Assembly (NCBI GenBank): GCA_017501465.1
Contig: JAFVWY010000009.1
Coordinates: forward strand, 115,092 to 179,091
Direction of reading: 5' to 3'
Origin: Bacilli bacterium
Lineage (GTDB): Bacteria > Bacillota_I > Bacilli_A > ML615J-28 > CAG-313
DNA length: 64,000 nucleotides
Shown here: positions 9,013-55,110 of the stretch, piece after piece
Numbering within the stretch: the stretch's first letter is position 1
Layout of the letters: every line of letters begins with the position of its first letter
Position numbers and translations under genes: made by a program
The notes under the pieces: model-generated
Seen by the model: only the letters and a program-made list of their open reading frames with translations
Databases searched by the model: none
Told to the model about the DNA's origin: nothing

Positions 9013-9859
9013 AGTAAATACTGTAATTATACCAGTTGCTGGGAAAGGAACTCGCTTTTTGCCAGTAACTAAAAGTGTGACAAAAACTATGTTTCCTATC
9101 ATTAATAAACCAGTTCTTCATTATTTAATTGAAGAAGGTATTAAAGCTGGTATTAAACGATTTATTATAGTTATTAATGATGAACAGGACATGATTAAAG
9201 ATTATCTTGACTTAAATAGTGATTATTATAATAATTTACATAAAGAATATCTAGAGCTTAATCAATTAGATGATATTATAAGACAAATTGAAATTAATTT
9301 CGTACATCAAGAAAAACCCTTAGGGTTAGGTCATGCAATACTTTGTTGTAAAGAATTAATTAAAAATGAACCATTTGGTGTAATGCTTGGAGATGATTTA
9401 GTCTTAAGCGATCAAACTAAATATGGAATTAGTGATTTAATTAAAGAATATAATAAAAATGCTGTTAACTATTTAGGCGTTCAAGAGGTTGAAATTGAAA
9501 ATACTAAAAAATATGGTATCGTAAAAACCCATAATAAAAAAGTAGTTGGAATTGTCGAAAAACCTCAAAGTAATCCACCATCAAATCTTGCTGTTGTTGG
9601 TAGATATGTTTTTAATCCATCAATTTTTGATTATTTGGAAACTTTAACAACTGATGGTGTTAAAGAGATTCAACTTACTGATGCTATTGAACTGGCTTTA
9701 TCAAAAGAAGTAGTGAACGCAATTCAGTTTAGTGGTATTAGATTTGATATAGGTGATCACTCTGGTTATATTGAAGCAGTAATTTATGCTGCATTACTTG
9801 ATAAAACGACTAAACAAAATGTTTTAAAATATATCGATAAATATCAACTAGTGTGTTAA
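9005..9859 (+). CDS. galU: UTP--glucose-1-phosphate uridylyltransferase
   Basis: IPVAGKGTRFLPVTKSVTKTMFPIINKPVLHYLIEE nucleotidyltransferase N-terminus. Terminator follows. Confidence 0.85.
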   Translation: MNKVNTVIIPVAGKGTRFLPVTKSVTKTMFPIINKPVLHYLIEEGIKAGIKRFIIVINDEQDMIKDYLDLNSDYYNNLHKEYLELNQLDDIIRQIEINFVHQEKPLGLGHAILCCKELIKNEPFGVMLGDDLVLSDQTKYGISDLIKEYNKNAVNYLGVQEVEIENTKKYGIVKTHNKKVVGIVEKPQSNPPSNLAVVGRYVFNPSIFDYLETLTTDGVKEIQLTDAIELALSKEVVNAIQFSGIRFDIGDHSGYIEAVIYAALLDKTTKQNVLKYIDKYQLVC

Positions 9860-9861
9860 AA

Positions 9862-9894
9862 AAGTCTTAGTATTAATTACTAAGACTTTTTTTA
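9862..9894 (+). terminator. rho-independent terminator after galU
   Basis: aagtcttagta..tactaagactt hairpin followed by ttttttt. Confidence 0.65.
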
Positions 9895-9937
9895 GTCTTT
9901 TTTGAATTTTTAGTTCATAAAATTAATGAGGTATGTT

Positions 9938-11023
9938 ATGAGAAATAAAATTGATTTTAAACTATTATTTTTAATAATTACTTTGGTTATATTTGGTATA
10001 GTAATGGTTTATTCATCAAGTAATGTGGTAGCTAGATTTCGATACAATGATGAATTATACTATTTTAAAAGACAATTGCTTTTTAGTGTTGTAGGAGTAA
10101 TTTTAATGTTATTAATTAGTAAGATCAACATTAATAAAATTAAAAAATACTCAAAGTTTTTTTTCTTAATATGTATAGTATTATTAGTTGCAGTATTAAT
10201 TTTCTCTAAAGCGATTGGAGGAGCTAAGTCTTGGCTTCAATTTGGCAGTTTTAGTTTACAACCTTCAGAGTTTATGAAAATTGCCTTAATACTTTTACTT
10301 AGCAATTATTTATCAAAATACCACCAAGATATAAAAAAATTTAAATACTTTATTTTACTATTATCGATTATTATATTTGTTTTTGGCTTAATTATGTTAC
10401 AGCCTGATTTTGGAACGGGTTTAGTTATTGTATTAAGCGGAATTACTTTATTGTTTATTGCTGGGACACCATTTAAATATTTCTTAATGTTATTTGGTAT
10501 TGGCATAATTGGTTTAGTAGGTTTAATTTTATCCGCTCCTTATAGACTAGATAGAATTTTAGCTTTTATTAATCCTTGGAGTGATCCACTAGGAAGTGGC
10601 TTTCAAGGGATACAATCGATACTAGCAGTTGCACCTAGCGGATTATTTGGACTTGGTTTTAATAAGAGTATCCAAAAACAATTCTTTTTACCGGAACCCC
10701 AAAATGATTTTATTTTTGCCATCATATGTGAAGAACTCGGATTAATTGGTGCGGTATTTTTAATTTTATTATATTTTTTATTTTTATATAAAACTATTAG
10801 ATTAAGTGTTAGAGTAGAAGATAAATATAAGTCTTTTGTAGCTTTAGGAATTGGCATTAGTATTTTTATTCAAGCAATTATTAATATAAGTGTCGTAATC
10901 GGTCTATTACCAATAACAGGAATAACTCTTCCTTTTATTAGTTATGGAGGATCTAGTTTAGTAATTACTTTAATTGGCTGTGGAATTATTTTAAATATTT
11001 CTAAATATGAGGAGGTTGTATGA
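9938..11023 (+). CDS. ftsW: SEDS-family peptidoglycan glycosyltransferase (FtsW/RodA)
   Basis: About 10 TM helices. C-terminal PITGITLPFISYGGSSL SEDS signature. GAGGT RBS before the ATG at 9938. TGA stop overlaps the murG ATG. Confidence 0.85.
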   Translation: MRNKIDFKLLFLIITLVIFGIVMVYSSSNVVARFRYNDELYYFKRQLLFSVVGVILMLLISKININKIKKYSKFFFLICIVLLVAVLIFSKAIGGAKSWLQFGSFSLQPSEFMKIALILLLSNYLSKYHQDIKKFKYFILLLSIIIFVFGLIMLQPDFGTGLVIVLSGITLLFIAGTPFKYFLMLFGIGIIGLVGLILSAPYRLDRILAFINPWSDPLGSGFQGIQSILAVAPSGLFGLGFNKSIQKQFFLPEPQNDFIFAIICEELGLIGAVFLILLYFLFLYKTIRLSVRVEDKYKSFVALGIGISIFIQAIINISVVIGLLPITGITLPFISYGGSSLVITLIGCGIILNISKYEEVV

Positions 11024-12015
11024 AAACAATTGTTATAATTGGGGGAAATACTTTAGGCCATGTAATTCCTGGAATAAGTATCGTTAATGGCCTTAGAAAT
11101 AAATATCCTCAAAATAGAATTATTTATGTTACTAATAGTAAACAAATGAATCTAAAAATTATTAAAGAATCAAACGCTGATATAAAAGAGTTTATTGATA
11201 TTAAGAGCCTTTCAAGACTTAATGAAATTAAAGAGTTTTTTAAGCTAAGAAAATACTTTATTAATTTATATAAAAAGTATAAGGTTGATTTAGTAATTGG
11301 ATTTGGTTCTTTTATATCTAGTGTTGGTATAATTACAGCCCAAATGCTAAATATTGATACAATAATTCATGAACAAAATAAAGTATTGGGACTTGGTAAT
11401 AAGTTATGTTATTTTAAAACAAAGAAATTACTATTGAATTATCCGTTAAATAAAAAACATAGAAAGAGTGTTGTTGTTGGTAATCCAATCCTAGTAAGTA
11501 ATCAAAGTAAAACAAAAAAAGAAAAATTAGTAATTACTAGTGGTAGCGGAGGAGCAAAATTTTTTAATGATATAATGGTAGATTTCTTAAATAATTACGA
11601 AGACAATTTAGAAATTACTTTTATTACAGGAAAAAAATATTACGATGAGATAAATTCAAAAATTAATAATAAAAAAATACAAATAGTTGACTTCATTGAT
11701 GATTTAGGTAGTTATTTACAAGATGTTAAATATATAATTACAAGAGCTGGTGCGACTACTTTATCAGAGATTTTTGAACTTGGTATTAAACCTATCATTA
11801 TTCCATCGCCTAATGTTTCTAATAATCATCAAGTATTAAACGCTTTAGAATATAAAGATTACAGTATAATTTTATATGAAAAAAATTTAACACCTGATGT
11901 GTTACTAACTTCTTTAAAAAAATTAAAGGATTTAAACCCCTTTAAAAAAGACTGTTTGGTAAGTCCTGTCTATCAATTTATAGAGGAAGTAAATGATGTT
12001 AAAAGACTATATTAG
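11020..12015 (+). CDS. murG: undecaprenyldiphospho-muramoylpentapeptide beta-N-acetylglucosaminyltransferase
   Basis: N-terminal IVIIGGNTLGHVIPGISI G-loop. C-terminal TRAGATTLSE. Confidence 0.85.
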   Translation: MKTIVIIGGNTLGHVIPGISIVNGLRNKYPQNRIIYVTNSKQMNLKIIKESNADIKEFIDIKSLSRLNEIKEFFKLRKYFINLYKKYKVDLVIGFGSFISSVGIITAQMLNIDTIIHEQNKVLGLGNKLCYFKTKKLLLNYPLNKKHRKSVVVGNPILVSNQSKTKKEKLVITSGSGGAKFFNDIMVDFLNNYEDNLEITFITGKKYYDEINSKINNKKIQIVDFIDDLGSYLQDVKYIITRAGATTLSEIFELGIKPIIIPSPNVSNNHQVLNALEYKDYSIILYEKNLTPDVLLTSLKKLKDLNPFKKDCLVSPVYQFIEEVNDVKRLY

Positions 12016-12952
12016 TAAAAATCATATAGGTACTTTGTATGAATATCACGAGTTAAAACAATATACGACATTTAAAATTGGTGGAATTTGTAGGTATTAT
12101 ATAGAGGTTAGTTCAATAGTAAAATTAAGCTTATTGATTAAATACTTAAAAAAAATTAATTATTTATATTATATTTTGGGAAATGGCTCTAATTTATTAA
12201 TAGATGATTGTTTTTTAGATTGTGTTTTTATAAGTTTAAAAAAGCTTAATAAAATTACAAAATTAGCTGAAAACATATATATGTTAGATGCAGGACTTAA
12301 ACCTAATCTATTAGGAATCAAGCTAGTAAAAGATGGTTTTATTGATGCGATACCATTTTGTTTAATTCCAGGAACAATTGGTGGTTTAACTTATATGAAT
12401 GCATCTTGTTTTAAAAAAAGTATTCAAAATATTGTCAAGTCTGTAATTTGTATGGACCATTTTGGTAATATCATATTCTTAAAAGATTGTCAGTTTAGTT
12501 ACCGAAAAAGTATATTCCAAGAGTTGAACTTAATAATATTAAAGGTAATATTTGAGTTTAAAGAAAAAAAAGAAGATGCCTATTCTACTTTAAAAAAGTA
12601 TCAAAATATTAAAAAAACAACCCAACCAATGTTAGTAAATACTAGTGGTAGTATGTTTATGAATGATTTAAATTATCATGCTTGGGAGCTAATAGATAAA
12701 TTAAAATTAAGAGGTTTTTCAATAAATGATGCTTGTATTAGTATGATTCATACTAACTTTTTTCTTAATAAAGGAAATGCTAAATTCAAAGAAATGATAG
12801 CTTTAATCTATTATGTTAAAACTAAAATATTTTTAGAATTTAATATCAAATTAAAATTAGAAGTAAAAATAATTACTATTCAATCTATTGCCTATTCAAA
12901 GAATAATTTGAGGAATAAGATAGATTGGGAGGGGAATTATGAATCATTTTAA
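11993..12952 (+). CDS. murB: UDP-N-acetylenolpyruvoylglucosamine reductase
   Basis: TTFKIGG and LGNGSNLLIDD FAD-binding motifs. Position after murG. Confidence 0.7.
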   Translation: MMLKDYISKNHIGTLYEYHELKQYTTFKIGGICRYYIEVSSIVKLSLLIKYLKKINYLYYILGNGSNLLIDDCFLDCVFISLKKLNKITKLAENIYMLDAGLKPNLLGIKLVKDGFIDAIPFCLIPGTIGGLTYMNASCFKKSIQNIVKSVICMDHFGNIIFLKDCQFSYRKSIFQELNLIILKVIFEFKEKKEDAYSTLKKYQNIKKTTQPMLVNTSGSMFMNDLNYHAWELIDKLKLRGFSINDACISMIHTNFFLNKGNAKFKEMIALIYYVKTKIFLEFNIKLKLEVKIITIQSIAYSKNNLRNKIDWEGNYESF

Positions 12953-13337
12953 TTATTTTAAAAATTACAAGAATAATAATACTTTAGTTTCTTTAGCTAC
13001 ACCTACAACTGGTTTTAAAAGAGGAAATATGTTTAATAATCTTTATAAACCCTATAGGAATTATTCGGTTAGCGACTTAACATTTAAAACTGATAAAGAA
13101 CGTTTAATGTATGAAATTCAAATGCATTCGTTTGTGGTGAATGATTTAGTTTTATATTTAGATGTTAATCCAACTGATCAAGAAGCTTTAAGAAGTTTTA
13201 AAGAATATAATCAAAAGTATAATTTACTTGTAAATGAGTTTGAACGAAAGTATCATCCTTTATGTATCAATTCAGAACAGTTTAATCAAAACTATTTTGA
13301 ATGGGTTAATAATTGGCCTAAAGGGGTGATGATGTAA
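12939..13337 (+). CDS. cotJB: CotJA-like / CotJB fusion protein
   Basis: N-terminal GNMFNNLYKPY resembles the CotJA core. The C-terminal 85 aa, LMYEIQMHSFVVNDLVLYLDVNPTDQEALRSFKEYNQKYNLLVNEFERKYHPL, match the CotJB domain. Coupled to cotJC. Confidence 0.6.
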   Translation: MNHFNYFKNYKNNNTLVSLATPTTGFKRGNMFNNLYKPYRNYSVSDLTFKTDKERLMYEIQMHSFVVNDLVLYLDVNPTDQEALRSFKEYNQKYNLLVNEFERKYHPLCINSEQFNQNYFEWVNNWPKGVMM

Positions 13338-13897
13338 TGTGGAAATATGAAAAGATTTTAGCATTTCCAATGAACATTAAAAAGAAAGACTTAAGGCTTG
13401 CAAAAGTAATATTAAGTCAATATGGTGGTCCACAAGGTGAATTAGGAGCTGCTTTAAGATATTTAAATCAAAGCTATACTATGCCTGATGATTATGGTAA
13501 AGCATTACTTAAAGATATTGGTACAGAAGAACTATCTCACGTTGAAATGCTTTGTGAAATGGTAGTTCAACTAACAAAAGATGCAACCATTAAGGAAATT
13601 AAAGAAGCTCATTTAGAGGATTACTTTACAGAACATGGTTTAGATTTATATGCACAAAATGCTTCAGGTGTTAGCTTTGATACAAAAGTCTTTTCATCTG
13701 TTGGTGATGTAATTGCAAATATTCATGAAGACATGGCGGCTGAAGAAAAAGCAAGAGCAGTATATGAACATTTAATTGACTTAACCGATGATGAAGAAGT
13801 CTTAAGACCACTACTTTTCTTAAGACAAAGAGAAATTGTTCATTATGCAAGATTTAAAGAATTATTAGAACATTATCAATCAAAAATGAATGAGTAA
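13337..13897 (+). CDS. cotJC: manganese catalase-family protein CotJC
   Basis: 186 aa. LRYLNQSYTMP and EELSHVEML di-metal ligand regions typical of CotJC / Mn-catalase. Confidence 0.8.
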   Translation: MWKYEKILAFPMNIKKKDLRLAKVILSQYGGPQGELGAALRYLNQSYTMPDDYGKALLKDIGTEELSHVEMLCEMVVQLTKDATIKEIKEAHLEDYFTEHGLDLYAQNASGVSFDTKVFSSVGDVIANIHEDMAAEEKARAVYEHLIDLTDDEEVLRPLLFLRQREIVHYARFKELLEHYQSKMNE

Positions 13898-14010
13898 ACT
13901 CATTCATTTTTTCTTTTTAAAAAAATATTTTTTTTATTTATGTGTAAAAAAAACCCATTAGTGTTATAATACGTTTACTAAAGATAGAAAAAAAATAAGT
14001 GGAGGATAAT

Positions 14011-15132
14011 ATGAACAGAACAATTGATGATATGTTAAGTTCTAGCCCAGTTATAAAAGTTGTTGGTGTTGGTGGTGGTGGTTGTAACGCCGTTAACCGT
14101 ATGATTTTAAATGATGTAATTGGTGTAGATTTTGTTGCAATTAATACTGACTGTCAAGCATTAAAAATGTCAAGAGCAGCAACTAAATTACAAATTGGTC
14201 GCCAAATCACTAAAGGATGGGGAGCTGGTGCAGAACCTGAAATTGGCCAAAGAGCTGCTGAAGAATCTGAAGATGAAATTAGAGAAGTTTTAAAAGATGC
14301 TGATATGATCTTTATTACTGCTGGTATGGGTGGAGGAACTGGTACTGGTGCCGCTCATATAGTTGCGAAAATCGCTAAAGAAATGGGAAGTTTAGTTATT
14401 GCTGTTGTTACTAAGCCATTCTCATTTGAAGGTAATAAACGTATGAAAGATGCTCTTATGGGTATCGAAAAGATTCGTCCTCATGTTGACTCACTAGTAA
14501 TTATTCCTAACGATAAACTTTTAGATGGTGGACCTGACGTTACTTATCTAGAAGCTGTTAGAGAAGCTGACAATGTTTTAAGAAGAGCTGTACAAGGTAT
14601 CTCAGAGATTATTACATTACCTGCTATGATTAACGTAGACTTTGCGGATGTAAGACATGTATTAAAAGATAGTGGTACTGCCTTAATGGGTATTGGTGCT
14701 GCTACTGGTCCTAATCGTGCAATTGAAGCTGCAAGACATGCTGTTTGTAGTCCCCTTCTTGAAATTGATATAAATGGTGCAACTGATGCTATTGTACAAA
14801 TTACAAGTGATACTGAAATTAAGATGAAAGAAGTTCAAGATATTGTTGATGAAATTAAAAATGCATCAACTACTGAAATCAATGTTATCTTCGGTACTGG
14901 ATTTAATACAGGTTTAGAAGGCGCAATCGTTGTAACTGTTATTGCAACTGGTTTTGACAAAACACAAAAAGAAAGACAACTTAATGTTTTAGATACTGAA
15001 TCAGAAGCTGAAGTTGTTGGTCTTGGTGGTGGCGAAACTACATCTAATGATCCTGTTGAAGACCCTAGAAATTCAGAAAAAGAACAAATTAGAGGACAAA
15101 TGCCTAAATGGCTAACTGATCGTTTTAAATAA
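14011..15132 (+). CDS. ftsZ: cell division GTPase FtsZ
   Basis: GVGGGGCNAVNRM and GGGTGTG tubulin signature. GGAGG RBS before the ATG at 14011. The 13999 GTG start in the ORF track is an N-terminal over-extension. Confidence 0.95.
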   Translation: MNRTIDDMLSSSPVIKVVGVGGGGCNAVNRMILNDVIGVDFVAINTDCQALKMSRAATKLQIGRQITKGWGAGAEPEIGQRAAEESEDEIREVLKDADMIFITAGMGGGTGTGAAHIVAKIAKEMGSLVIAVVTKPFSFEGNKRMKDALMGIEKIRPHVDSLVIIPNDKLLDGGPDVTYLEAVREADNVLRRAVQGISEIITLPAMINVDFADVRHVLKDSGTALMGIGAATGPNRAIEAARHAVCSPLLEIDINGATDAIVQITSDTEIKMKEVQDIVDEIKNASTTEINVIFGTGFNTGLEGAIVVTVIATGFDKTQKERQLNVLDTESEAEVVGLGGGETTSNDPVEDPRNSEKEQIRGQMPKWLTDRFK

Positions 15133-19309: not shown

Positions 19310-20404
19310 ATGGAAAAGTTTGAAATACTTAAGCATCATGAAGATTTTAAAAGAAGAATTAATGAATTAAAACAGGTGTTAAATATTGAAAAACTTATAC
19401 AGGAAATTCAAGAATTTGATAGTGTAATGCAACAAGATGGTTTTTGGAATGATACAAGACATGCTAAGTCCCTTATTAATAAATTAAATACTTTAAAGAA
19501 TAAATATAACTTATATGTTGAATTAGAAAAATATCAAGAAGAATTAACAACAATTATTGAATTTAATGATGATGAATTATTTGTTGAAGCCACAAGTTTA
19601 ATTGATACAATTATAAAAAAATTAGATAATTTTGAAGAATTATTATTACTTAATGAAGAATATGATAGTAATAACTGTATTTTAGAAATACATCCTGGTG
19701 CAGGGGGTACAGAATCACAAGATTGGGCTTTAATGTTATTTAGAATGTATAAAAGATTTGCCGAAATTAAAGGTTTTAAATTTAGCGTGCTAGATTATTT
19801 AGAAGCAATTGATGCTGGAATTAAAAGTGTTACTTGTTTAGTAGAAGGTGTTAATGCTTATGGATTATTAAAGTCAGAAAAAGGAGTACACCGATTGGTT
19901 CGTATTTCACCATTTGACTCAAACGCTAGAAGACACACAAGTTTTGCAGGTGTTAACATTACCCCAGAAGTTAGTGATGATATTGACATTGAGATTAATG
20001 TTGATGATTTAAGAGTAGATACTTATAGATCAAGTGGTGCAGGAGGTCAATATGTTAATACTACTGACTCTGCTGTAAGAATTACACATATTCCAACCGG
20101 TATTGTCGTTTCTTGTCAAAATGAAAGAAGTCAAATTCAAAATAGAGAAAGGGCAATGCAAGTTTTAAAAGCAAAGTTATATGAACACGAAAAAGAAATT
20201 GAGAAGGCAAAACTTTCTAAAATTGAAGGAGATATTACTGATAACGCTTTTGGCAGTCAAATCAGAAGTTATGTTCTTCATCCATATTCACTAGTTAAAG
20301 ATCACAGAACAAATTATGAATCAATGAATCCACAAAAAGTTTTAGATGGTGATTTGATGGGATTTATTAATGCATATTTAAAAAATAAAAAGACGGTGAT
20401 ATAG
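19310..20404 (+). CDS. prfB: peptide chain release factor 2, single uninterrupted ORF
   Basis: GGQ motif SGAGGQYVNTTDSAVRITH. SPF tripeptide at RISPFDS, which marks RF2 rather than RF1. Confidence 0.85.
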   Translation: MEKFEILKHHEDFKRRINELKQVLNIEKLIQEIQEFDSVMQQDGFWNDTRHAKSLINKLNTLKNKYNLYVELEKYQEELTTIIEFNDDELFVEATSLIDTIIKKLDNFEELLLLNEEYDSNNCILEIHPGAGGTESQDWALMLFRMYKRFAEIKGFKFSVLDYLEAIDAGIKSVTCLVEGVNAYGLLKSEKGVHRLVRISPFDSNARRHTSFAGVNITPEVSDDIDIEINVDDLRVDTYRSSGAGGQYVNTTDSAVRITHIPTGIVVSCQNERSQIQNRERAMQVLKAKLYEHEKEIEKAKLSKIEGDITDNAFGSQIRSYVLHPYSLVKDHRTNYESMNPQKVLDGDLMGFINAYLKNKKTVI

Positions 20405-22214: not shown

Positions 22215-23648
22215 ATGAAAAAAATACTTGTACTATTTATAATGTTGACTTCTATTTTTATGTTAGCATCTTGTGAATTTGGTGGAACAGGAAGTGGTGG
22301 TCAAACTGGCGGTAATAACAAGCCAACAGAATATACTATTACATATGAACTTGATGGCGGTGAGTTTGAAGAAGAAGCTGTTACTAAGTTTACTGATGGT
22401 AGTAAAATAGAATTAATTGAACCTGTTAAAGAAGATCACATTTTTATTGGTTGGTACAATGAAGATGATGAATTAGTATCTAATTTAGCTGGTGTTTATG
22501 AAAATGTCGTTTTATATGCTAAATGGGAATCATTTATCCCTGGTGTTGAATATCAGATTGAATATGTAACTAATGGTGGAGAACTACCAAGTGATACAGA
22601 ATATAAATATACATCTGGTAAGGAATATGTTTTACCAATCCCTAGAAAAGCTAGCTATGAATTTGTTGGTTGGTATGATTATGAAACTGATGAAGAAATG
22701 ACTAAAGTTAGCGCTACAACTAGCGGTGATGTTAAAGTTTATGCAATGTATCGCAAAACTGTTATCGTTAATAATATTACATATCATACTGATGGCGGTG
22801 TATTACCAGAAAATACTAAGTATACTTACACAGAAGGTGTAGGTCAAGCGCTACCTAAACCAACTAAAGATGGTTACTATTTTAGAGGTTGGTATACAAC
22901 TAGTTCATTCGAAAAGGTTGTAACTGCTATTACTGTTAATTATTATGGTGAATTAGAGTTTTATGCTTTATTTGTTGAAGCAACAGTAGAAAATTCTAAT
23001 TTCGCTATTCTTGGCGATAGTATTTCAACATTCTATTCACCAACATCATCTTTTAATAGTTTATTTGGTGGTGAAAATCAATTCTATTATCCAAGATATA
23101 GTGCAACTGTTAATAGTGTCCAAAAGACTTGGTGGTATAAAACAATCGAAGCTATTGGTGGAAAGTTATTCGTTAATAATTCTTACTCTGGTGGAACAGT
23201 TTGTGGTAGCGGTATGAGTGCTGCAATTTCTAATGAAAGACTTGCTAAATTTAACTATAAAGGCCAATCACCAGATGTTATCATTATTTATTTAGGCATT
23301 AACGATGCAGTTGGTAAAACACCAAGAGAAACATTTAAACAAACATATCAAGAAGTAATTAATAAGATTCATAATATGTATCATGATGTTCAAATCTTCA
23401 TATGTAACCTTCCTTATGAAACTTACACAGATGGTGTACATAGAGAACAGTATAATGAGGTTTTATCTGAACTTGCTAGTGAAAATGAATTACCATTAAT
23501 TAATTTTAAAAATGCTTGGTCAAGTAATACTGAGATTAAAAATAATTGGTATTACCTTGGTGATAATATACATCCAAGTGCTAATGGTATGAATATTTTG
23601 GCTCAAATTGCTACTAAAGCTATTAAGGAATTTTACGGTATTGAATAA
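22215..23648 (+). CDS. lipoprotein with Listeria-Bacteroides-type repeat domain and C-terminal SGNH/GDSL hydrolase
   Basis: Signal peptide with lipobox LASC. Three GWY-containing ~70-aa repeats. SGNH blocks FAILGDSISTF, LGINDA, DNIHP. Paralog of the 59076..60860 lipoprotein. Confidence 0.7.
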   Translation: MKKILVLFIMLTSIFMLASCEFGGTGSGGQTGGNNKPTEYTITYELDGGEFEEEAVTKFTDGSKIELIEPVKEDHIFIGWYNEDDELVSNLAGVYENVVLYAKWESFIPGVEYQIEYVTNGGELPSDTEYKYTSGKEYVLPIPRKASYEFVGWYDYETDEEMTKVSATTSGDVKVYAMYRKTVIVNNITYHTDGGVLPENTKYTYTEGVGQALPKPTKDGYYFRGWYTTSSFEKVVTAITVNYYGELEFYALFVEATVENSNFAILGDSISTFYSPTSSFNSLFGGENQFYYPRYSATVNSVQKTWWYKTIEAIGGKLFVNNSYSGGTVCGSGMSAAISNERLAKFNYKGQSPDVIIIYLGINDAVGKTPRETFKQTYQEVINKIHNMYHDVQIFICNLPYETYTDGVHREQYNEVLSELASENELPLINFKNAWSSNTEIKNNWYYLGDNIHPSANGMNILAQIATKAIKEFYGIE

Positions 23649-23721
23649 ATAAAAAAACACATTAGAATTTCTAATGTGTTTTTAATTTGTAAAAATATTC
23701 TTTTTGATATATAATAATAGT

Positions 23722-23876
23722 GTTCTTCAGGGCAGGGTGTAATTCCCGACCGGCAGTAAAGTCTGCGAAATCTAAATGATTTGATGAGGTTAGATTCCTC
23801 AACCGATAGTATAGTCTAGATGAAAGAAGAAATCCATTTCTTTTTTTGTCGCTCTGTAGCGGCTTTTTATTTTATT
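23722..23876 (+). promoter_or_regulatory. FMN riboswitch (RFN element) with intrinsic terminator expression platform
   Basis: ttcttcagggcagggtgtaattcccgaccggcagtaaagtctgcgaaa...ggttagattcctcaaccgatagtatagtctagatgaaagaagaa matches the conserved RFN core. Followed by gtcgctctgtagcggc hairpin plus T-run. Confidence 0.8.
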
Positions 23877-23889
23877 TAAAGGATGGTTT

Positions 23890-24522
23890 ATGTATATGAA
23901 AAAAAGAAAAGTAACAACAGCGTGGGAAGTTCAAGTAGCAATCCTTTCTGCACTTGCCATTATTTTATACAATTTTCCTAAGTTTCAACTTCCGTTTTTT
24001 CCTGGTATGTTAAGTGTGCAATTTTCTATGTTACCTACTATTATTGGTGGTTTTGCTTTAGGTCCAGTTGGCGGAATCTATATTGTATTAATTAAGTTTA
24101 TTTTTAAATTACTAACAACAAGATCAGCTGGGGTTGGAGAATTTGTTGATTTAATTATAGGAGTTTGTGTAGTACTTGTTACTTCACTAATTTATAAATA
24201 TATTAAAAGTAAAAAAGGAGCCATTATTGCCTTAATTATGGGATCTATTACTTGGGTAGTAGTTGCGGTTATTTTAAACTGGCTTTGGGCAATACCATTT
24301 TATTGTAATACTTTTGGTATGGATAAAGTAATTGGTATGATAATGGTAATACCTGGCGTTAATGAAAGCAATTATATGAGTAAATATTTATTATTTGGAT
24401 GTTTACCATTTAATCTTATGTTAGCAAGTGTAGTAAGTATAGTCACATATATTATATATAAAAGAGTTTCTTGGTTATTTGAGAAAATGACTAATAAAAT
24501 AGAAAAGAAAAATAGAGTTTAA
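23890..24522 (+). CDS. ribU: riboflavin transporter RibU (ECF S-component)
   Basis: Sits downstream of the FMN riboswitch. About six TM helices, 210 aa. LPTIIGGFALGPVGG segment typical of RibU/YpaA. Confidence 0.75.
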   Translation: MYMKKRKVTTAWEVQVAILSALAIILYNFPKFQLPFFPGMLSVQFSMLPTIIGGFALGPVGGIYIVLIKFIFKLLTTRSAGVGEFVDLIIGVCVVLVTSLIYKYIKSKKGAIIALIMGSITWVVVAVILNWLWAIPFYCNTFGMDKVIGMIMVIPGVNESNYMSKYLLFGCLPFNLMLASVVSIVTYIIYKRVSWLFEKMTNKIEKKNRV

Positions 24523-25465: not shown

Positions 25466-26254
25466 ATGTTTTTAAGTAAAGTAGATGATTTTTTTAACTG
25501 GATCTTTAAAGATTTAAATGGTAAGTTTGATTTTAGAATATTCGTGACTTTATTAATTGGTATCTTATTGGGTATTATAATTACTATTTCGATATATGGT
25601 ATTGTATTATTAATATCTTTAAAACAATCTGAAAAGAAACAAAAAAGCCATATTATTGAATCTAATTTAACTGAAGATGAATTAGAAAAATTAGTAAAAC
25701 AAATAAAGAATGAATTCCTAGATACAACATCTACTTTTACCCCGAGTGAAAAAGTTAAAGTTTTAGGTACTACTTTACTAAATACTATTAAAACAATTGC
25801 TGCATCTTTTTATCCTAACTCTAAGTATCCTTTATTTGAATTAAATATTGAGGAACTATTGGTGTTGTGTCACTATATTAGCAATAGGGTGGAAACTATT
25901 TTTGACAAAAGAGTTTTAAAGCCTTTTAAAACAATGAGTATCAGTCAAATATTTAAAATGTTAGATGAATATAAAAGAGTACAAGAAAATAAAGCGGTTA
26001 AAGGATTTAAAAAGACCTCATCTGCTAGAAATATTGTGTTTACAATATTGAATTATGCTAATCCTGTATATTGGTTTAAAAAATTAATTATTAATGGAAC
26101 TATCAATTCAGCATTAACTAAAATGTGTTTAATAGTAATTGATATTACATCTAGTGAAACAATTAAAGTATATAGTAAAAGAGTTTTCAACAAAGAGTTA
26201 GAACTACTAGATGAAATAGTAGAAAAAGAAATTAATGAAATGGAGGAATTATAA
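25466..26254 (+). CDS. hypothetical single-pass membrane protein, translationally coupled to ftsK
   Basis: One strong TM helix (IFVTLLIGILLGIIITISIYGIVLLISL). Its stop overlaps the ftsK start (ATAATG). No motif recognised. Confidence 0.4.
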   Translation: MFLSKVDDFFNWIFKDLNGKFDFRIFVTLLIGILLGIIITISIYGIVLLISLKQSEKKQKSHIIESNLTEDELEKLVKQIKNEFLDTTSTFTPSEKVKVLGTTLLNTIKTIAASFYPNSKYPLFELNIEELLVLCHYISNRVETIFDKRVLKPFKTMSISQIFKMLDEYKRVQENKAVKGFKKTSSARNIVFTILNYANPVYWFKKLIINGTINSALTKMCLIVIDITSSETIKVYSKRVFNKELELLDEIVEKEINEMEEL

Positions 26255-28362
26255 TGAAAAAGAAAAATCAAGAAATAGTTTTTAATCTTAAGTTTATTGA
26301 TGAGAATTCTAAAGATACTAGGGATGATTTTCCTAATGTGTTAAAACATGTTGATCCAATTACTCCATTAGATAGTTTTCCGATTTGTTATTTTAAAGAT
26401 GAAAAACATGTGGAAAAACCAATAGAAGAAACTATTGTTATTAATGAACCTAATAAATTTGTATCACCAATTATTGGAGAACAAAATAATGATTTAGTAA
26501 GTGGAGAACATAGTAACAGACCTAAAGAAGTTTATGAAAAGTTTATGGGAGATGAAAAAAAGCCCCAAACTATTAGCGAAATTAAAAAGAGTTTTGATTT
26601 ATTAGACTCTAAAGATTATCGAAACATTTTAATTAATGGTGTGGCTCCGGTGGATTATGATGAGTCAACTGGTTATGAATATGAAATAGATGATACATAC
26701 GAAGAGGAAGTTAAAGAAGTAGAAATTCCAGAAGTAAAACATACTAATTATGAGTATTATGTTGAAGAAGATACTAAACCTAAAGAAGAAAATAAATTTG
26801 AAGATATTGAAGAATTCACTTTAGAAGATGATTTGGAAGAAGAAGTTGAATTAGAAGAAGAAGTTATAGAAAAACCGATTAAAAAAGAAGTTGTAATTAA
26901 AGAAGTAGAAAAACCCGCTTATCATAAACCTAGTAAAAGAAGTAAATATGTTGCTCCGCCTTTAAAATTCTTAAAGAAGAATGAAGGTAGAGTTGAGGTT
27001 GATAATGAGTGGGCACTTGAAAAACAAAATGCAATTAATAGAGTATTTAGTGAATTTAATTATGGTGCCAAAGCTGTAGGCTACAAGGTAGGTCCTACTG
27101 TTACATTGTTTTTAATTGATATTGAACCAGGAACAGATGTTGGTAAAATAAATTCCTTCACTAAAACATTACAAATGAGACTATGCGTTAAGAGTTTAAG
27201 AATTCATTCGCCAATTCCTGGAATGGATTGTGCTGGTATTGAAGTGCCTAATGCCAAACGTACAACCGTTTTAGCAGGAACTTTAATTAATAATCCTGAA
27301 TATTTACAAGATGAAAAAAAATTAAAGTTTGCTTTAGGGTTAAATTTAAGTGGCGATATGGTATATGCTGATATTGAAAAGATGCCACATGGATTAATTG
27401 CCGGAGCAACTGGTAGTGGTAAGAGTGTATGTATTAATACTATGATTATTAGTTTAATATATCACAATACTCCAGATGAATTAAGAATGATTATGGTAGA
27501 CCCTAAAATGGTAGAACTATCTATTTATAATGATATTCCTCATCTTGCAATGCCAGTAATTACTGAGGCTAAAAAAGCAGCTCCTGCTTTTAAATGGCTT
27601 TGTGAAGAAATGGATCGTAGATTTATGATCTTCTCTCAATATCATGTCAGAGATATTAGTAAGTTTAATAAATTAATGGAAGCTCAAGGAAACAAGATTT
27701 TCCCTCGTATTGTTTTAATTATAGATGAATTAGCTGACTTAATGTTAGTTGCTGGTAACGAAATTGATGGTTACATTCAACGTTTAGGTGGTAAAGCTAG
27801 AGCAGCGGGTATTCACGTTATTTTAGCAACCCAAAGACCTTCTACTGATGTTATTAAAGGTACAATGAAAAATAATGTGCCTGCCAGAATCGCGTTTGCA
27901 GTTACGAGCCCTGTGGATTCTACTACTATCTTAGACCATGGCGGTGCTGAAAAATTACTTGGTATGGGTGATATGTTGTTCTCTAATGCTCAAGGGGAAG
28001 AACGTGTTCAAGGTGCTTTAGTAACTGATGATGAAATTAGTGATATTGTAGAATTCTTAGTTGAACATAATGAGGTATCATTCTTACTAGATTCTAATCA
28101 ATTACAAGAAAGAATTGTAAGTGAAGAAGTAGAAGAAGGTGACGATGAATTACTTGAAGAAGTTGCTTTATATATGGTAAGAAATAAGAATGGTTCATCC
28201 AATATTATTCAGACAAAATTTGGTGTTTCCTTTAATAGAGCAAAACGAATGTTGTCTAAAATGGAAAAACTAGGTATTTTATCTGAAACAGTGGCTGGTA
28301 AACCTAGAGAAGTTTTAGTAAATGAAGAAGAATTATTAAGAATTCTTGATGAAAATAAGTAG
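26254..28362 (+). CDS. ftsK: FtsK/SpoIIIE-family DNA translocase lacking a membrane domain (SftA-like)
   Basis: Acidic low-complexity linker. Walker A GATGSGKSVCINT. ILATQRPS. C-terminal winged-helix gamma domain. No TM helices are predicted. Confidence 0.85.
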   Translation: MKKKNQEIVFNLKFIDENSKDTRDDFPNVLKHVDPITPLDSFPICYFKDEKHVEKPIEETIVINEPNKFVSPIIGEQNNDLVSGEHSNRPKEVYEKFMGDEKKPQTISEIKKSFDLLDSKDYRNILINGVAPVDYDESTGYEYEIDDTYEEEVKEVEIPEVKHTNYEYYVEEDTKPKEENKFEDIEEFTLEDDLEEEVELEEEVIEKPIKKEVVIKEVEKPAYHKPSKRSKYVAPPLKFLKKNEGRVEVDNEWALEKQNAINRVFSEFNYGAKAVGYKVGPTVTLFLIDIEPGTDVGKINSFTKTLQMRLCVKSLRIHSPIPGMDCAGIEVPNAKRTTVLAGTLINNPEYLQDEKKLKFALGLNLSGDMVYADIEKMPHGLIAGATGSGKSVCINTMIISLIYHNTPDELRMIMVDPKMVELSIYNDIPHLAMPVITEAKKAAPAFKWLCEEMDRRFMIFSQYHVRDISKFNKLMEAQGNKIFPRIVLIIDELADLMLVAGNEIDGYIQRLGGKARAAGIHVILATQRPSTDVIKGTMKNNVPARIAFAVTSPVDSTTILDHGGAEKLLGMGDMLFSNAQGEERVQGALVTDDEISDIVEFLVEHNEVSFLLDSNQLQERIVSEEVEEGDDELLEEVALYMVRNKNGSSNIIQTKFGVSFNRAKRMLSKMEKLGILSETVAGKPREVLVNEEELLRILDENK

Positions 28363-37467: not shown

Positions 37468-38352
37468 TTATTTACCTAGTCTTTTATTTACATTATAAAA
37501 ATAATTAATATCATCTATATTATCATATATATTAATTGAATGATCAACATACTCTAAATATTCTAAAATGTTAATATTTTTTGTTTTGACAATAAGTTTA
37601 TCTTTATCTTCAATTATTTTTTTGAAAACTTTAATTTTATTAGTATTAAAGTAAATCTCTTCAAAATCCAAATAATTTATATCCCCATCATAATTATTAA
37701 TTAAAATAATACCTTTATTAATATCTAAATTTAATAAATACTCATTAATACTAATTGAATCTATAGAAATGATTGAATCGGTTGTATTTTCTAAAGAAGA
37801 TACTTTATATGTCTTATCAATTATTTTTTTATCAAATAATTCATTAGTAATTTTTAAATATTCATCGAAGTTTTTTAAGTTATTAATTTTATTTGTGTTA
37901 TTAAAAGGTTTATTTGTTACAATAAAACGTGATGCATAAATAGTATCATGAGGTGGGATTTTCGAAAAGTGGGCGTATTTTGGTAAATAGTAATAATCAT
38001 AAATATAACGATATAATTCTTCTTCTGTTATATTTTCTTTAGCAACACTTAATAAATAATCAATAAAATCATCATTTAAATAAGCTTTTAATTTTTTTAA
38101 ATATGAACGTTCTTGTTTTTCTTTTCTTGTTAGTTTAACTGGATAATATCTTCTTTTTGCGAATGCATTACATCTTAAGATTCTAAAACCCACTAATATA
38201 GTTGCATAAAAGAAATTAAACTTTTTATAAGTTTCTAAGGCATAGTCAGAACAAGTTGGGTAAAATTTGCAATGTCCTACACCTATTAAAGATTTATTTT
38301 TTTGATATGATTTTATTAATTTAACTGCAAACTTATTTTTACATTTATGCAT
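37468..38352 (-). CDS. yidD: YidD (membrane protein insertion efficiency factor) domain fused to ~220-aa C-terminal extension
   Basis: GHCKFYPTCSDYALETYKKFNFFYATILVGFRILRCNAF matches the YidD hallmark. Followed by an Asn/Ile/Asp-rich domain of unknown function. Start placed at the ATG after GGTGA. The track start is TTG with no RBS. Confidence 0.55.
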   Translation of the reverse strand: MHKCKNKFAVKLIKSYQKNKSLIGVGHCKFYPTCSDYALETYKKFNFFYATILVGFRILRCNAFAKRRYYPVKLTRKEKQERSYLKKLKAYLNDDFIDYLLSVAKENITEEELYRYIYDYYYLPKYAHFSKIPPHDTIYASRFIVTNKPFNNTNKINNLKNFDEYLKITNELFDKKIIDKTYKVSSLENTTDSIISIDSISINEYLLNLDINKGIILINNYDGDINYLDFEEIYFNTNKIKVFKKIIEDKDKLIVKTKNINILEYLEYVDHSINIYDNIDDINYFYNVNKRLGK

Positions 38353-38421
38353 AACATCACCATTTTTAATTATCTCAAAAAAGATAGTATAAATCAAGAA
38401 TTTAAGTTAAAAATATTACTG

Positions 38422-38961
38422 ATGAATACTTTAATAATAATTACCTTAATACTTTTATTGATATATTATATTTTTTCTTTAAAGATTACTCTATATTTAA
38501 ATAAAGATGAAAAACTTCATATTTGGTTTAAAATAGGCAAAATTTTTAGATTTAGAGTCAATGAATCAAAACTTATTAAAAAACTGTTAGATGATATTAA
38601 TCTAAAAGATATATCGAAAATACAATATGATAGTTTCATGATTAATAATCTTTTAAAATATATTACTGTAGAAAAAATCACCGTTATTGAAAAATCTAAT
38701 ATTTTAAGTGATACTTGGAATATTTATTCAAGTTTTATTTTAAACTATATGAATAGTTATCTTCATAGTTTACTAAATCAACATTTTTATAAAGTAAATG
38801 ATGTGTATTATTCTATTAGTTATGATACAGTAGGATCGTTTGGTATTTATTTTGAATTAGTATTAAGTCTTAAAATAACTAAATTACTAAAGTATTTAAT
38901 AAGGAGGAAAAGATATAATGAACAAAGAAACGAGCGAAATTATAAAAGATTCATTAAATGA
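38422..38961 (+). CDS. YtfI-like (DUF2953) sporulation-associated membrane protein
   Basis: N-terminal TM helix, then a K/I-rich body as in DUF2953. Immediately upstream of and overlapping ytfJ, as in the Bacillus ytfI-ytfJ operon. Confidence 0.4.
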   Translation: MNTLIIITLILLLIYYIFSLKITLYLNKDEKLHIWFKIGKIFRFRVNESKLIKKLLDDINLKDISKIQYDSFMINNLLKYITVEKITVIEKSNILSDTWNIYSSFILNYMNSYLHSLLNQHFYKVNDVYYSISYDTVGSFGIYFELVLSLKITKLLKYLIRRKRYNEQRNERNYKRFIK

Positions 38962-39295
38962 GGTAAAAAGTTTAATTGATGTTAATGTTGTGATTGGGAA
39001 GCCAATGTTTTTAGATGAAGCATTAGTAGTACCTATCTCAAAAGTAAAGTGTGCATATATTAGTGGAGGAATCGATCAAAAAAAAGAAAACTATAAAGGT
39101 AATATGCCTCAATCTAGTTTATTAGCTTCTAACCAAACAATCACTCCGGTTGGGTTTTTAGTTAAAGAAAAAGATAGTGTAAAAGTATTACACTTAGAAA
39201 ATGATGTACATATTTTAGAATATATTTTAGATTCTGGTATTGATGTTATTAAGACATTTATCGATTTATTTAAAAAGAAAGAAAAACCTGAATAA
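38918..39295 (+). CDS. ytfJ: sporulation protein YtfJ/GerW family
   Basis: VIGKPMFLDEALVVPISKVKCAYISGGIDQKK and TPVGFLVKEKDSVKVLHLEND match the YtfJ/GerW core. Confidence 0.65.
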   Translation: MNKETSEIIKDSLNEVKSLIDVNVVIGKPMFLDEALVVPISKVKCAYISGGIDQKKENYKGNMPQSSLLASNQTITPVGFLVKEKDSVKVLHLENDVHILEYILDSGIDVIKTFIDLFKKKEKPE

Positions 39296-48717: not shown

Positions 48718-49078
48718 GGGCTAGTATTGGTTTCGACGGGATGTTAGAAGGTTGATAAGCATACCGTGGTCATGCACGTTAAAACATCTAGGTTTAAAAT
48801 AACCGGAAATCAAAATTTAGCTTTCTGCTAGGCTTAAATAGCAGATCCTAATAATTAGGGTAACTCCTTTGTGTCTTGCCTATGTGATACAAAAGGATTC
48901 AGAGAATAGGCTATGATGATCATATTAGCTTCGGTATAGGATTCGAGATTTAGAGCTGGTAGTAATTATGTTTTGTTTATTTTCATAATTACTATGAGAC
49001 CAAATTAATAAACTAAGTATGTAGAAAATTGATTAGATAATGTTTCGGACGCGGTTTCGACTACCGCCTAGTCCACCA
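48718..49078 (+). ncRNA. ssrA: transfer-messenger RNA (tmRNA, ssrA)
   Basis: 5' GGGCUAG pairs with 3' CUAGUCC, then discriminator A plus encoded CCA. GGUUUCGACGGG D-analog. T-arm GCGGUUUCGACUACCGC with UUCGACU loop. 361 nt. Internal tag ORF ends with UAG. Another frame ends with UAA UAA. Confidence 0.85.
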
Positions 49079-49176
49079 TTAGAATACACGCCACTTTGTT
49101 GAAAAATGAAGTGGTTTTTTTATTTTATAGAAATTTGGTTTTTGTATTGACAATGTAGTGACATTTTGGTATAATG
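49047..49176 (+). repeat. att-like module copy A: tmRNA 3' end, terminator hairpin, TTGACA-17-TATAAT promoter
   Basis: Core tagtccaccattagaatacacgccactttgttgaaaaatgaagtg (49070..49114) recurs at 52146..52190 with 3 mismatches. A more degenerate copy lies at 50996..51044. All three are followed by a promoter. Confidence 0.75.
49089..49122 (+). terminator. intrinsic terminator downstream of tmRNA
   Basis: ccactt..aagtgg hairpin followed by ttttttt. Confidence 0.6.
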
Positions 49177-49198
49177 AAAGTGTTATGGAGGTATTTTT

Positions 49199-49831
49199 AT
49201 GAGTTATATACAAATTAGAATTGATGATGAATTAAAAGAAGAAGCTGTAAAATTGTTTAATGAATTAGGTTTAGATTTATCTACAGCTATTCGTCTTTTT
49301 CTAAAGAAAAGTATTGATGATAAAAAAATGCCCTTTAAATTAAAAGGCAAGGGACGTGACGATTCTAAAGATGTTAAATACCGATTAAGAGCAGATGTAA
49401 TGGTACCACCTAATACTAACCCGTTTGAAGTAATGGATGAATTTATCCGAGTTTGTAATGAGAATGAATGGTACTGTTTAGGTGGTGGTGTACAATATCC
49501 TAATAAAGTCTTGACACTTTCAAAACCGGATGATGACATATATTATCACGGTTCACCATTTAAAATTGAAACTTTAAAAGAAGGGTTTGATTTTACGCCA
49601 TTTAAAGAACTTGCAATTTCATTTGGAAGTAAGCCATCACATATATCTATTAATGAGGGGAAAGTTAGCCATGATGGGATTAAATATCCTGTATATTTAT
49701 ATCAAATTGATGAAGACATAAAACTTGAAAAAGATTTTATTAATCATCCAAATTCAGCATTTGATAAAGGAATGGAATTCCGTTCTAAACGTGATTTAAA
49801 ATTAAAGTTGATAGATGTTATTAATGAGTAG
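49199..49831 (+). CDS. RelB/DinJ-type ribbon-helix-helix antitoxin-like domain fused to ~160-aa domain of unknown function
   Basis: N-terminal MSYIQIRIDDELKEEAVKLFNELGLDLSTAIRLFLKKSI matches the DinJ/RelB antitoxin family. The C-terminal domain has no recognised motif. Promoter 49147..49175 upstream. Confidence 0.55.
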   Translation: MSYIQIRIDDELKEEAVKLFNELGLDLSTAIRLFLKKSIDDKKMPFKLKGKGRDDSKDVKYRLRADVMVPPNTNPFEVMDEFIRVCNENEWYCLGGGVQYPNKVLTLSKPDDDIYYHGSPFKIETLKEGFDFTPFKELAISFGSKPSHISINEGKVSHDGIKYPVYLYQIDEDIKLEKDFINHPNSAFDKGMEFRSKRDLKLKLIDVINE

Positions 49832-49840
49832 GTGAATATT

Positions 49841-54508: not shown

Positions 54509-54883
54509 ATGGGCTTAGATTTATTACTTGACGGAATAGCGGCCATCACTTGGAAAGAAATCGTAATGTATTGTGTTGGGATTATTTTGATATATCTAGT
54601 AATTCTAAACAACTAGAACCAACTCTATTATTACCAATGGGATTTGGTGCAATTTTGGTTAACATTCCGTTTTCTTCTGTATTAACTCAAGGTAGTACAA
54701 TTGGTGCTATTGAGTGGTTATTTGATGTTGGTATTAATGTTAGTGAAATATTACCACTTTTACTATTTATAGGCATTGGAGTATTGCTTGATTTTGTACC
54801 ATTATTATCTAATCCAAAATTAATATTGCAGGTCAAGTTGCATCTGCAATTGCTGGTGGTGTTGTATTATCATTCTTTATGTA
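54509..54883 (+). pseudogene. frameshifted N-terminal remnant of a Na+-translocating decarboxylase beta subunit (OadB/GcdB/MmdB family)
   Basis: MGLDLLLDGIAAITWKEIVMYCVGIILIYL then stop. Next frame: LEPTLLLPMGFGAILVNIP...PLLLFIGIGVLLDFVPLLSNPK. A third frame reads GQVASAIAGGVV then stop. About 250 aa of the family are missing. GGAGG RBS retained. Confidence 0.5.
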
Positions 54884-55110
54884 GGAGGCAACTAATGTTT
54901 TTAAAAATTAACACTGAACAATTATTACAAGCTTTAGATATAAGTTGGAAATCATTAGTAGCACTTTTTGTCGCAATGCTTCTAATTTATGTTTCAATTA
55001 ATTTCTTGAGTAGTATTAAGAAAAATAAGTTTATTAATTAACTTCATAAGTTTTGCTTATGAAGTTTTTTTATGGTAAAATATTATATGTAAAATTAATC
55101 GAGGTATGAT

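Follow-up and report, generated by a model that had tools for sequence, protein, structure and literature searches.

In a 64,000-nucleotide stretch of the metagenome-assembled genome (MAG) of an uncultured gut Bacilli bacterium (GCA_017501465.1, contig JAFVWY010000009.1; hereafter the window), a run of genes at positions 9938-15132 is probably the 3' remnant of a Firmicutes cluster for division and the cell wall (dcw) that has captured the spore coat genes cotJ, with ftsZ as a separate unit. A clade spanning several genera inherited this layout from its ancestor, and many of its members retain ftsZ-...-spoIIGA-sigE-sigG, the signature of a spore-former. The locus is a genuine variant of the dcw cluster and the cotJ operon, both known systems, that is found throughout the clade; it is not a new kind of system. 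Here, we describe the locus and its relatives, and then assess what it may say about division and sporulation in this lineage.

Six plus-strand genes lie within 9938-15132: a SEDS gene, murG, murB, a cotJA/cotJB fusion (cotJB in gene orders below), cotJC, and ftsZ. The genes and the predicted signals around them are:

9858-9892, + strand: intrinsic terminator of a galU-like gene, 5' boundary of the operon (15-bp stem and T-run; -16.6 kcal/mol, z = -5.05)
9916-9933, + strand: leader CATAAAAT-TAAT-GAGGTA directly 5' of the SEDS start, conserved between species and including the ribosome-binding site
9938-11023, + strand: SEDS peptidoglycan glycosyltransferase of FtsW/SpoVE type, 361 aa (PF01098, 376.7 bits; the start agrees with 361-aa gene calls)
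11020-12015, + strand: murG (PF03033, PF04101; TIGR01133 147 bits, under its cut-off)
11993-12952, + strand: murB, 319 aa (PF02873, PF01565; TIGR00179 175 bits, cut-off 144.5)
12939-13337, + strand: putative cotJA/cotJB fusion gene, 132 aa (PF12652, 69.4 bits, and a comparative motif test)
13337-13897, + strand: cotJC, short Mn-catalase/ferritin-like protein, 186 aa (PF05067, 161.9 bits)
13882-13911, + strand: intrinsic terminator closing the five-gene operon, on the cotJC stop (hairpin and T-run; -13.4 kcal/mol, z = -5.17)
13962-13970, + strand: extended -10 promoter-like element TGTTATAAT (TGnTATAAT type) for ftsZ, read off the sequence
14011-15132, + strand: ftsZ, 373 aa (TIGR00065, 394.5 bits, cut-off 295.2)

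An earlier note on this DNA had called these genes in the order SEDS-murG-murB-cotJ pair-ftsZ, and Pfam and NCBIfam profile matches show that all of the calls were right. We place the ftsZ start at ATG 14011, 5 nt past the GGAGG at 14001-14005, because the 373-aa product is on record (MBR2891290.1). The GTG at 13999, called in the open reading frame (ORF) list, was rejected: an exact look-up found no 377-aa product. Records MBR2891287-290 are the MurB, CotJB, CotJC, and FtsZ of the window, from an NCBI "Bacilli bacterium" MAG, and are found on contigs reaching 338 kb. Independent metagenome contigs with an identical FtsZ, mostly from ruminant gut, have the same gene order wherever the contig spans the locus; since these represent several samples and assemblers, the order is not an assembly artefact. 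Base composition is ~27% G+C throughout the window and uniform across the murB-cotJ-ftsZ junctions, and the standard bacterial code reads cleanly.

To place the locus, we compared it with those of relatives. The nearest species in the genome collection is a "Bacilli bacterium" MAG from goat colon (FtsZ 89% identical), and the next-best among the matches listed are MAGs labelled Anaeroplasmataceae, Mollicutes, Acholeplasma, and Acholeplasmataceae (FtsZ 50-58%). A large protein search returned a graded series of FtsZ sequences at 58-92% identity, several of them labelled "Acholeplasmatales bacterium." The clade loci around ftsZ, with FtsZ identity to the window, are:

L012 (89%): SEDS-murG-murB-cotJB-cotJC-[CitMHS transporter]-[942-aa surface protein]-ftsZ-rpiB-HPF-secA, with a 4.5-kb insertion before ftsZ
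L087 (78%): SEDS-murG-murB-cotJB-cotJC-ftsZ, unbroken
L088 (75%): nadE-ftsZ-rnf, with ftsZ detached
L090 (69% over 84%): cotJC 10 kb 5' of ftsZ; spoIIGA-sigE-sigG after ftsZ
L089 (63%): SEDS-murG-murB-cotJB-cotJC-ftsZ, unbroken
L091 (59%): murG-murB-cotJB-cotJC-[7.6 kb of assorted genes]-ackA-ftsZ-pckA-...-spoIIGA-sigE-sigG
L092 (58%): ackA-ftsZ-pckA-...-spoIIGA-sigE-sigG; no cotJ or murB within 10 kb upstream

Thus, relatives with FtsZ identities of 59-89% repeatedly show murB-cotJB-cotJC with ftsZ 0.06 to >7 kb downstream, and neither ftsA nor divIB was found at the locus in any clade member examined. From this recurrence, we conclude that the clade, which spans several genera, inherited the arrangement "SEDS-murG-murB-cotJ, variable gap, ftsZ" from a common ancestor and that the spacer between cotJC and ftsZ is a hot spot for insertions. 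When JGI metagenomes were scanned with CotJC, 80 loci were obtained, and murB-linked cotJ occurred only in the clade. All five closest-CotJC loci with enough flank (L093, L094, L097, L098, and L100) read murB-cotJB-cotJC, and ftsZ follows in each of the four that reach far enough (L094, L097, L098, and L100). The remaining cotJC loci, including low-GC loci with 56-62% CotJC identity, hold cotJ in unrelated contexts.

Among the outgroups, two MAGs, one labelled Anaeroplasmataceae and one Mollicutes, read CNNM-murG-murB-ftsZ, without SEDS and cotJ. Acholeplasma-type genomes read tgt-ftsZ-ychF-ylmE-sepF-ileS, with SepF matching PF04472 at 39.4 bits (cut-off 27); SepF is annotated in A. laidlawii, A. 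oculi, A. granularum, and others, and A. laidlawii is listed among the mollicutes that encode ftsZ and sepF in a JBC paper (PMC11987601). Across the wider lineage, ftsA is missing from the ftsZ neighborhood, and the wall-less branch at least has SepF beside ftsZ. The SepF of these compact Acholeplasma-type gene blocks (L009, 11177-13193; L173, 7130-13265) is unusually short at 105-109 aa and starts with a MGLF-(K/R)-rich sequence. Similar short SepFs of 109-127 aa form a large family in MAGs labelled "Bacilli bacterium" or "Acholeplasmataceae bacterium."

The earlier note had set the arrangement against Erysipelotrichia and Clostridia, a frame that proved off: the closest FtsZ sequences outside the clade belong to Acholeplasmatales, Anaeroplasmataceae, and Acholeplasmataceae MAGs. 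It had also presented the order as unusual. The order itself, without local ftsA or divIB, is real, but it is the standard layout of the clade and not specific to this genome, and is therefore unremarkable for a single genome by the note's own rule that an order universal among relatives would be so. Its proposal that cotJ was recruited into the dcw locus has been strengthened by the overlapping genes, the bracketing terminators, and a linkage conserved across the clade.

The gene geometry suggests how this locus is organized. Neighboring genes overlap by 4, 23, 14, and 1 nt from SEDS through cotJC, and two intrinsic terminators bracket SEDS-murG-murB-cotJB-cotJC. The cotJC start overlaps the cotJB stop (TAATG), and the cotJB ribosome-binding site GGGAGGGG sits within the murB 3' end. 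The MurB C-terminus is ~17-20 aa longer than in relatives (319 vs 299-302 aa), since the frame continues through what in relatives is an intergenic spacer (murB-cotJB gap of 17-53 nt) into cotJB. Between cotJC and ftsZ, the window has a gap of 113 nt. A hairpin 3' of cotJC was found in six of the seven clade members folded, including L012, L089, L091, L094, and L100. With the window included, promoter-like sites precede ftsZ in all four species checked; the others are TGCTATAAT in L087, TGATATAAT in L094, and TTGACA-17-TATAAT in L089. Everything the earlier note had seen ahead of ftsZ is present: a terminator (13882-13911), a promoter-like region (13962-13970), and a strong GGAGG (14001-14005). 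The simplest reading is that the five genes from SEDS to cotJC would be carried on one mRNA, followed by a monocistronic ftsZ.

We also looked for promoter-like elements further upstream. A 19-nt leader, tcATAAAATTAATGAGGTA, is identical in the window, L012, and L087, while the remaining intergenic DNA, including the terminator, differs. Within the SEDS leader, CATAAAAT resembles a sigma-E-type -10 or a weak sigma-A -10. A CATAnnnTA-like element lies 26-28 nt before the cotJB ATG in four relatives (L012, L087, L089, and L091), and in L089 it comes after a hairpin that follows murB. A sigma-70 consensus scan was uninformative in this AT-rich DNA (31 sites vs 37.7 in shuffles).

The 132-aa gene, which NCBI names "spore coat protein CotJB," carries the PF12652 CotJB domain at aa 55-127 (69.4 bits, cut-off 29), preceded by a CotJA-like motif, GNMFNNLYKPY, at aa 29-39. 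Its N-terminus matches PF11007 CotJA at 17.2 bits (E = 0.0048), below the 25-bit cut-off, and such a weak match was seen in three of five clade sequences. In ~35 ordinary cotJ loci, the CotJB ORF is 82-98 aa, and a separate frame immediately upstream carries GT[ILV]FPELYxPY, the CotJA hallmark. In contrast, eight of ten murB-linked loci checked, as well as a small sister group, have a long CotJB ORF (107-160 aa) with the CotJA motif, here GN[ML]FxxLYxPY, ~15-20 residues ahead of the CotJB domain; no separate cotJA frame carrying the motif was found in the window or in the loci with a long CotJB ORF. The gene is best read as a cotJA-cotJB fusion in which the CotJA part appears reduced to its conserved C-terminal motif. 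The motif's place inside the long ORF here, versus a separate upstream frame in ordinary loci, upholds the CotJA/B fusion that had been proposed at first reading. Such a fusion would provide a simple genetic argument that CotJA and CotJB work as one unit. The full length of CotJC can be aligned with solved Mn catalases, among which Anabaena Alr3090 is the best match (E = 8e-23), and its ExxH-type EELSH and REIVH align with EEFSH and REISH of Alr3090.

Next, we consider the missing division genes. Among all window ORFs of 90 aa or more, Pfam searches gave no FtsA/SHS2, MreB, POTRA/FtsQ-DivIB, or SepF domain. We then built an FtsA hidden Markov model (HMM) from 44 FtsA-like ORFs that lie just 5' of ftsZ in other phyla; among the seeds, one is similar to solved FtsA structures (E = 3e-65), and the model picks up MreB-like proteins weakly. 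Neither the window ORFs of 60 aa or more nor the related loci contained a match to it, and FtsQ and SepF HMMs had none in the window or the clade loci. The flanks (5 kb upstream and 10 kb downstream) include pyrimidine-synthesis genes, gltX, and ABC transporter genes, among others, with no FtsA, DivIB/FtsQ, SepF, or MreB. The reported local absence of ftsA and divIB therefore stands, as Pfam and the HMMs found no overlooked copy in the 64-kb window or ~15 kb of flank.

Three candidate proteins were rejected. A 433-aa ORF between cotJC and ftsZ in L012 is a CitMHS/ArsB transporter instead of FtsA, and a 370-aa ORF 5' of the Acholeplasma ftsZ is Tgt. A 262-aa membrane protein 5' of ftsK, considered as a hidden DivIB, is without Pfam or HMM support; it has no family match and no detectable DivIB similarity, and is translationally coupled to ftsK/spoIIIE (both within 25466-28362).

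FtsZ itself appears ready to bind a tether. The canonical C-terminal docking peptide, DIPTFLRNR in B. subtilis, binds FtsA, SepF, and other partners. The window FtsZ ends in a similar peptide, MPKWLTDRFK (encoded at 15100-15129), all clade FtsZ proteins end in [MIV]PxWLxxRFK, and those of the outgroups end in PSWLxx(K). Because the peptide is conserved, some tether is still expected, though the peptide does not indicate which partner. Few gene adjacencies in bacteria are as well conserved as that of ftsA and ftsZ, and the absence of the pair in every clade and outgroup genome examined favors true loss of ftsA, to which we give somewhat better than even chances. Tethering of the Z-ring by SepF only is known from Actinobacteria, Cyanobacteria, and Acholeplasma.

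The SEDS protein may belong to sporulation rather than vegetative division. Work on C. difficile together with a survey across Firmicutes concluded that spore-formers of this phylum carry a SpoVE-type SEDS gene within the dcw cluster and lose it along with sporulation (PMC10693644). Because the window gene sits among dcw genes in a spore-former-type clade, we favor a SpoVE-like, sporulation-linked role for it, with cotJ co-expressed. The Anaeroplasmataceae MAG with murG-murB-ftsZ and without SEDS and cotJ fits this view of SEDS and cotJ as the sporulation-linked parts. Elsewhere in the window, ytfJ (Spore_YtfJ) is preceded by an overlapping gene for a 204-aa membrane protein without a family match. 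The two (38347-39295) recall the ytfI-ytfJ forespore pair, a further hint of sporulation capacity.

Altogether, we propose that the SEDS protein would be a SpoVE-type, sporulation-linked synthase and that cotJ would have joined its cortex/cell wall operon. The cotJ genes may then be made in the mother cell alongside the SEDS operon, and an internal promoter immediately 5' of cotJB may contribute as well. ftsA and divIB would have been lost from their position before the clade split from its wall-less Acholeplasma and Anaeroplasma relatives. SepF, encoded next to ftsZ in Acholeplasma, would probably tether the Z-ring, with an FtsA encoded elsewhere less likely; we propose SepF because FtsZ keeps its conserved C-terminal docking peptide. 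A more far-reaching version of this scenario describes a clade of walled, sporulation-gene-carrying gut Bacilli, relatives of Acholeplasma, entirely without FtsA, perhaps without DivIB, that form both vegetative and asymmetric sporulation septa by FtsZ tethered through SepF or another factor alone, and in which CotJA/B-CotJC is an integral, co-transcribed part of a SpoVE-MurG-MurB operon. Taken whole, we consider this version rather unlikely.

Several observations weigh against these proposals. By profile scores, the SEDS protein reaches 411.2 bits against TIGR02615 spoVE, its best model, which is below the 448.8 cut-off, and 391.1 bits against TIGR02614 ftsW, which is above the 337.5 cut-off. 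Vegetative growth requires murG and murB, which makes an operon dedicated to sporulation alone unlikely, and CotJ would also be made in growing cells unless there is an internal promoter or attenuation. Co-transcription is predicted from gene geometry. No spoIIGA-sigE-sigG was found near ftsZ in the window or L012, and sporulation in the genus is putative. The absence of ftsA and divIB covers ~79 kb of the MAG, and no SepF could be tied to the clade genomes. At ~12909-12917, inside the extended murB ORF, the window has AATAAGATA and not CATAnnnTA. In a control set of ordinary cotJA genes, only 3 of 36 had a CATA-type -10 on the 5' side, and we therefore make no sigma-E/K promoter claim for CATAnnnTA or CATAAAAT.

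A conventional divisome could underlie the same locus if ftsA and divIB were merely relocated, for instance alongside mraZ-mraW-ftsL-pbp-murE-mraY-murD, the half of the cluster that is missing here. We take this seriously while doubting it. The dcw cluster is clearly fragmented, with galU-like and glycosyl/acyl-transferase genes rather than murD or mraY 5' of SEDS; FtsZ retains a peptide that can bind FtsA, and the inspected ~79 kb leaves room elsewhere in the MAG. However, ftsA-ftsZ adjacency is highly conserved, an FtsA-like ORF stood just 5' of ftsZ in 44 loci of other phyla, and the pair is in none of the clade or outgroup loci examined. In Acholeplasma, it is sepF and not ftsA that is linked to ftsZ, and FtsA-less Firmicutes are documented (PMC8136486).

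The cotJ pair may instead be a neutral passenger in the gap left by divIB-ftsA loss, kept by inertia and functionally unconnected with division or the synthesis of the cell wall. The hot spot between cotJC and ftsZ speaks for this, having taken in a transporter and a surface protein in L012 and, in L100 and L091, unrelated genes amounting to 2-7.6 kb, as do the hairpin after murB in L089, where cotJ may be a separate unit, and the relocated ftsZ in L088. Yet all clade members down to an FtsZ identity of 59% have murB-cotJB-cotJC unbroken, with gaps of -19 to +53 nt, even as the flanks are reshuffled. The reading frames overlap in the window, and the Anaeroplasmataceae outgroup has murG-murB-ftsZ while lacking both SEDS and cotJ. 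We consider a passenger unlikely. A constitutive Mn-catalase system against peroxide in an anaerobe, expressed with the housekeeping genes murG and murB, would account for the apparent co-transcription of the pair with growth-essential genes, for the alignment of the CotJC ExxH-type stretches with a solved Mn catalase, and for the lack of spoIIGA-sigE-sigG beside ftsZ in the genus of the window. This is quite improbable: CotJB with CotJC is the specific architecture of the sporulation operon, clade relatives have sporulation sigma genes and the window has ytfJ, and the non-sporulating outgroups are without cotJ. Finally, a MAG could in principle join unrelated fragments through faulty assembly or binning, but we give this next to no credence: independent contigs from several samples and assemblers show the identical order, as do several other species, and composition is uniform across the junctions.

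If the reading of a captured cotJ module and a separate ftsZ is correct, the locus documents the erosion of a dcw cluster that is otherwise very stable, on the lineage leading from spore-formers among the Firmicutes to the Acholeplasma group, which is wall-less: neither ftsA nor divIB remains in the vicinity of ftsZ, ftsZ stands alone, and a coat module has been captured by the SEDS-murG-murB operon. Should FtsA be truly absent genome-wide, the clade would be a test case for FtsA-independent, presumably SepF-based, Z-ring anchoring in a walled Firmicute, as well as for asymmetric sporulation septation without FtsA. Likewise, a co-transcribed CotJ module would suggest that CotJ acts at the cortex/coat interface and is not a late coat accessory. 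Current models are not overturned, as FtsA losses in Firmicutes are already on record.

The window includes several other features, separate from the locus above. prfB (19310-20404) is a single unbroken ORF of 364 aa in the window, as it is in L003; on L001 (15300-16394), which has an identical FtsZ, it is called as two genes of 189 and 169 aa, which could reflect strain variation, a sequencing error, or a frameshift site. Within 23719-24522, a flavin mononucleotide (FMN) riboswitch (108.5 bits) lies 5' of the S component of an ECF transporter, presumably for riboflavin uptake. A transfer-messenger RNA (tmRNA) gene within 48718-50839 (Rfam, 144.6 bits) has an unusual predicted tag, GNQNLAFC; RelB-domain and RhuM-family proteins directly 3' of it may mark a small integrated element at ssrA. 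Two paralogous secreted proteins (22215-23648 and 59076-60860) combine Listeria-Bacteroides repeats (Flg_new) with a GDSL lipase/esterase domain, and a similar Flg_new/GDSL gene lies near ftsZ in L090 (6484-8610). A 163-aa ORF (54550-55041) matches the first ~90 of 349 positions of the oxaloacetate decarboxylase beta subunit model and is probably a gene remnant. On the minus strand at 37468-38397, a YidD domain (normally a ~70-90 aa membrane-insertion efficiency factor) is N-terminal in a 309-aa protein.

Among known systems, the Acholeplasma ftsZ locus likewise has no ftsA beside ftsZ, and its FtsZ shares the PxWL C-terminal motif and 50-58% identity with that of the window. Unlike the window, Acholeplasma is wall-less and its locus is without SEDS, murG, murB, and cotJ; sepF is linked to ftsZ there, and none is in the window. 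A precedent for ftsA loss in Firmicutes is Mageeibacillus indolicus, which lacks both FtsA and SepF and shows that FtsA-less Firmicutes exist (PMC8136486); in our case, the absence is known at the level of the locus. As with the dcw-encoded SpoVE/SpoVD of C. difficile, which are specialized for sporulation, the window has a dcw-resident SEDS in a spore-former lineage, and its presence tracks sporulation in that the non-sporulating outgroup is without SEDS (PMC10693644). Unlike the window, C. difficile retains ftsA and ftsQ, and its cluster is without cotJ; the SEDS role proposed here is a prediction.

The B. subtilis cotJA-cotJB-cotJC operon is sigma-E-dependent and contributes to the inner spore coat, with CotJC of the Mn-catalase family, according to the account of Seyler et al. 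1997 given in PMC13492147. The window shares with it the CotJB domain, a CotJC of ~186 aa, translational coupling, and the CotJA C-terminal motif. It differs in having no separate cotJA, as the shortened CotJA motif appears fused to CotJB, and in placing the genes within a murein-synthesis operon. In the papers searched, we found no description of cotJ inside a dcw cluster.

The 3' half of the B. subtilis dcw cluster reads spoVE-murG-murB-divIB-ylxW-ylxX-sbp-ftsA-ftsZ-bpr-spoIIGA-sigE-sigG. The window resembles it in the order SEDS-murG-murB with ftsZ downstream, and several clade relatives have spoIIGA-sigE-sigG 3' of ftsZ. Unlike in B. subtilis, there is no divIB, ylxWX, sbp, or ftsA, and cotJ(A)B-cotJC is in their place. 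The mraZ...murD half is not upstream either: no mraZ-mraW-ftsL-bPBP-murE/F-mraY-murD was found 5' of SEDS, where there are galU-like, CrtO-like, acyltransferase, GT8, helix-turn-helix regulator, and Fe-alcohol dehydrogenase genes instead, and ftsZ is a separate unit behind a terminator. The inferred ancestral Firmicutes cluster DCW1 comprises spoVE, murG, murB, ftsQ, ftsA, ftsZ, and spoIIGA (PMC8136486). The clade locus fits this ancestral DCW1 with one change: ftsQ-ftsA is gone, and cotJ stands in its place.

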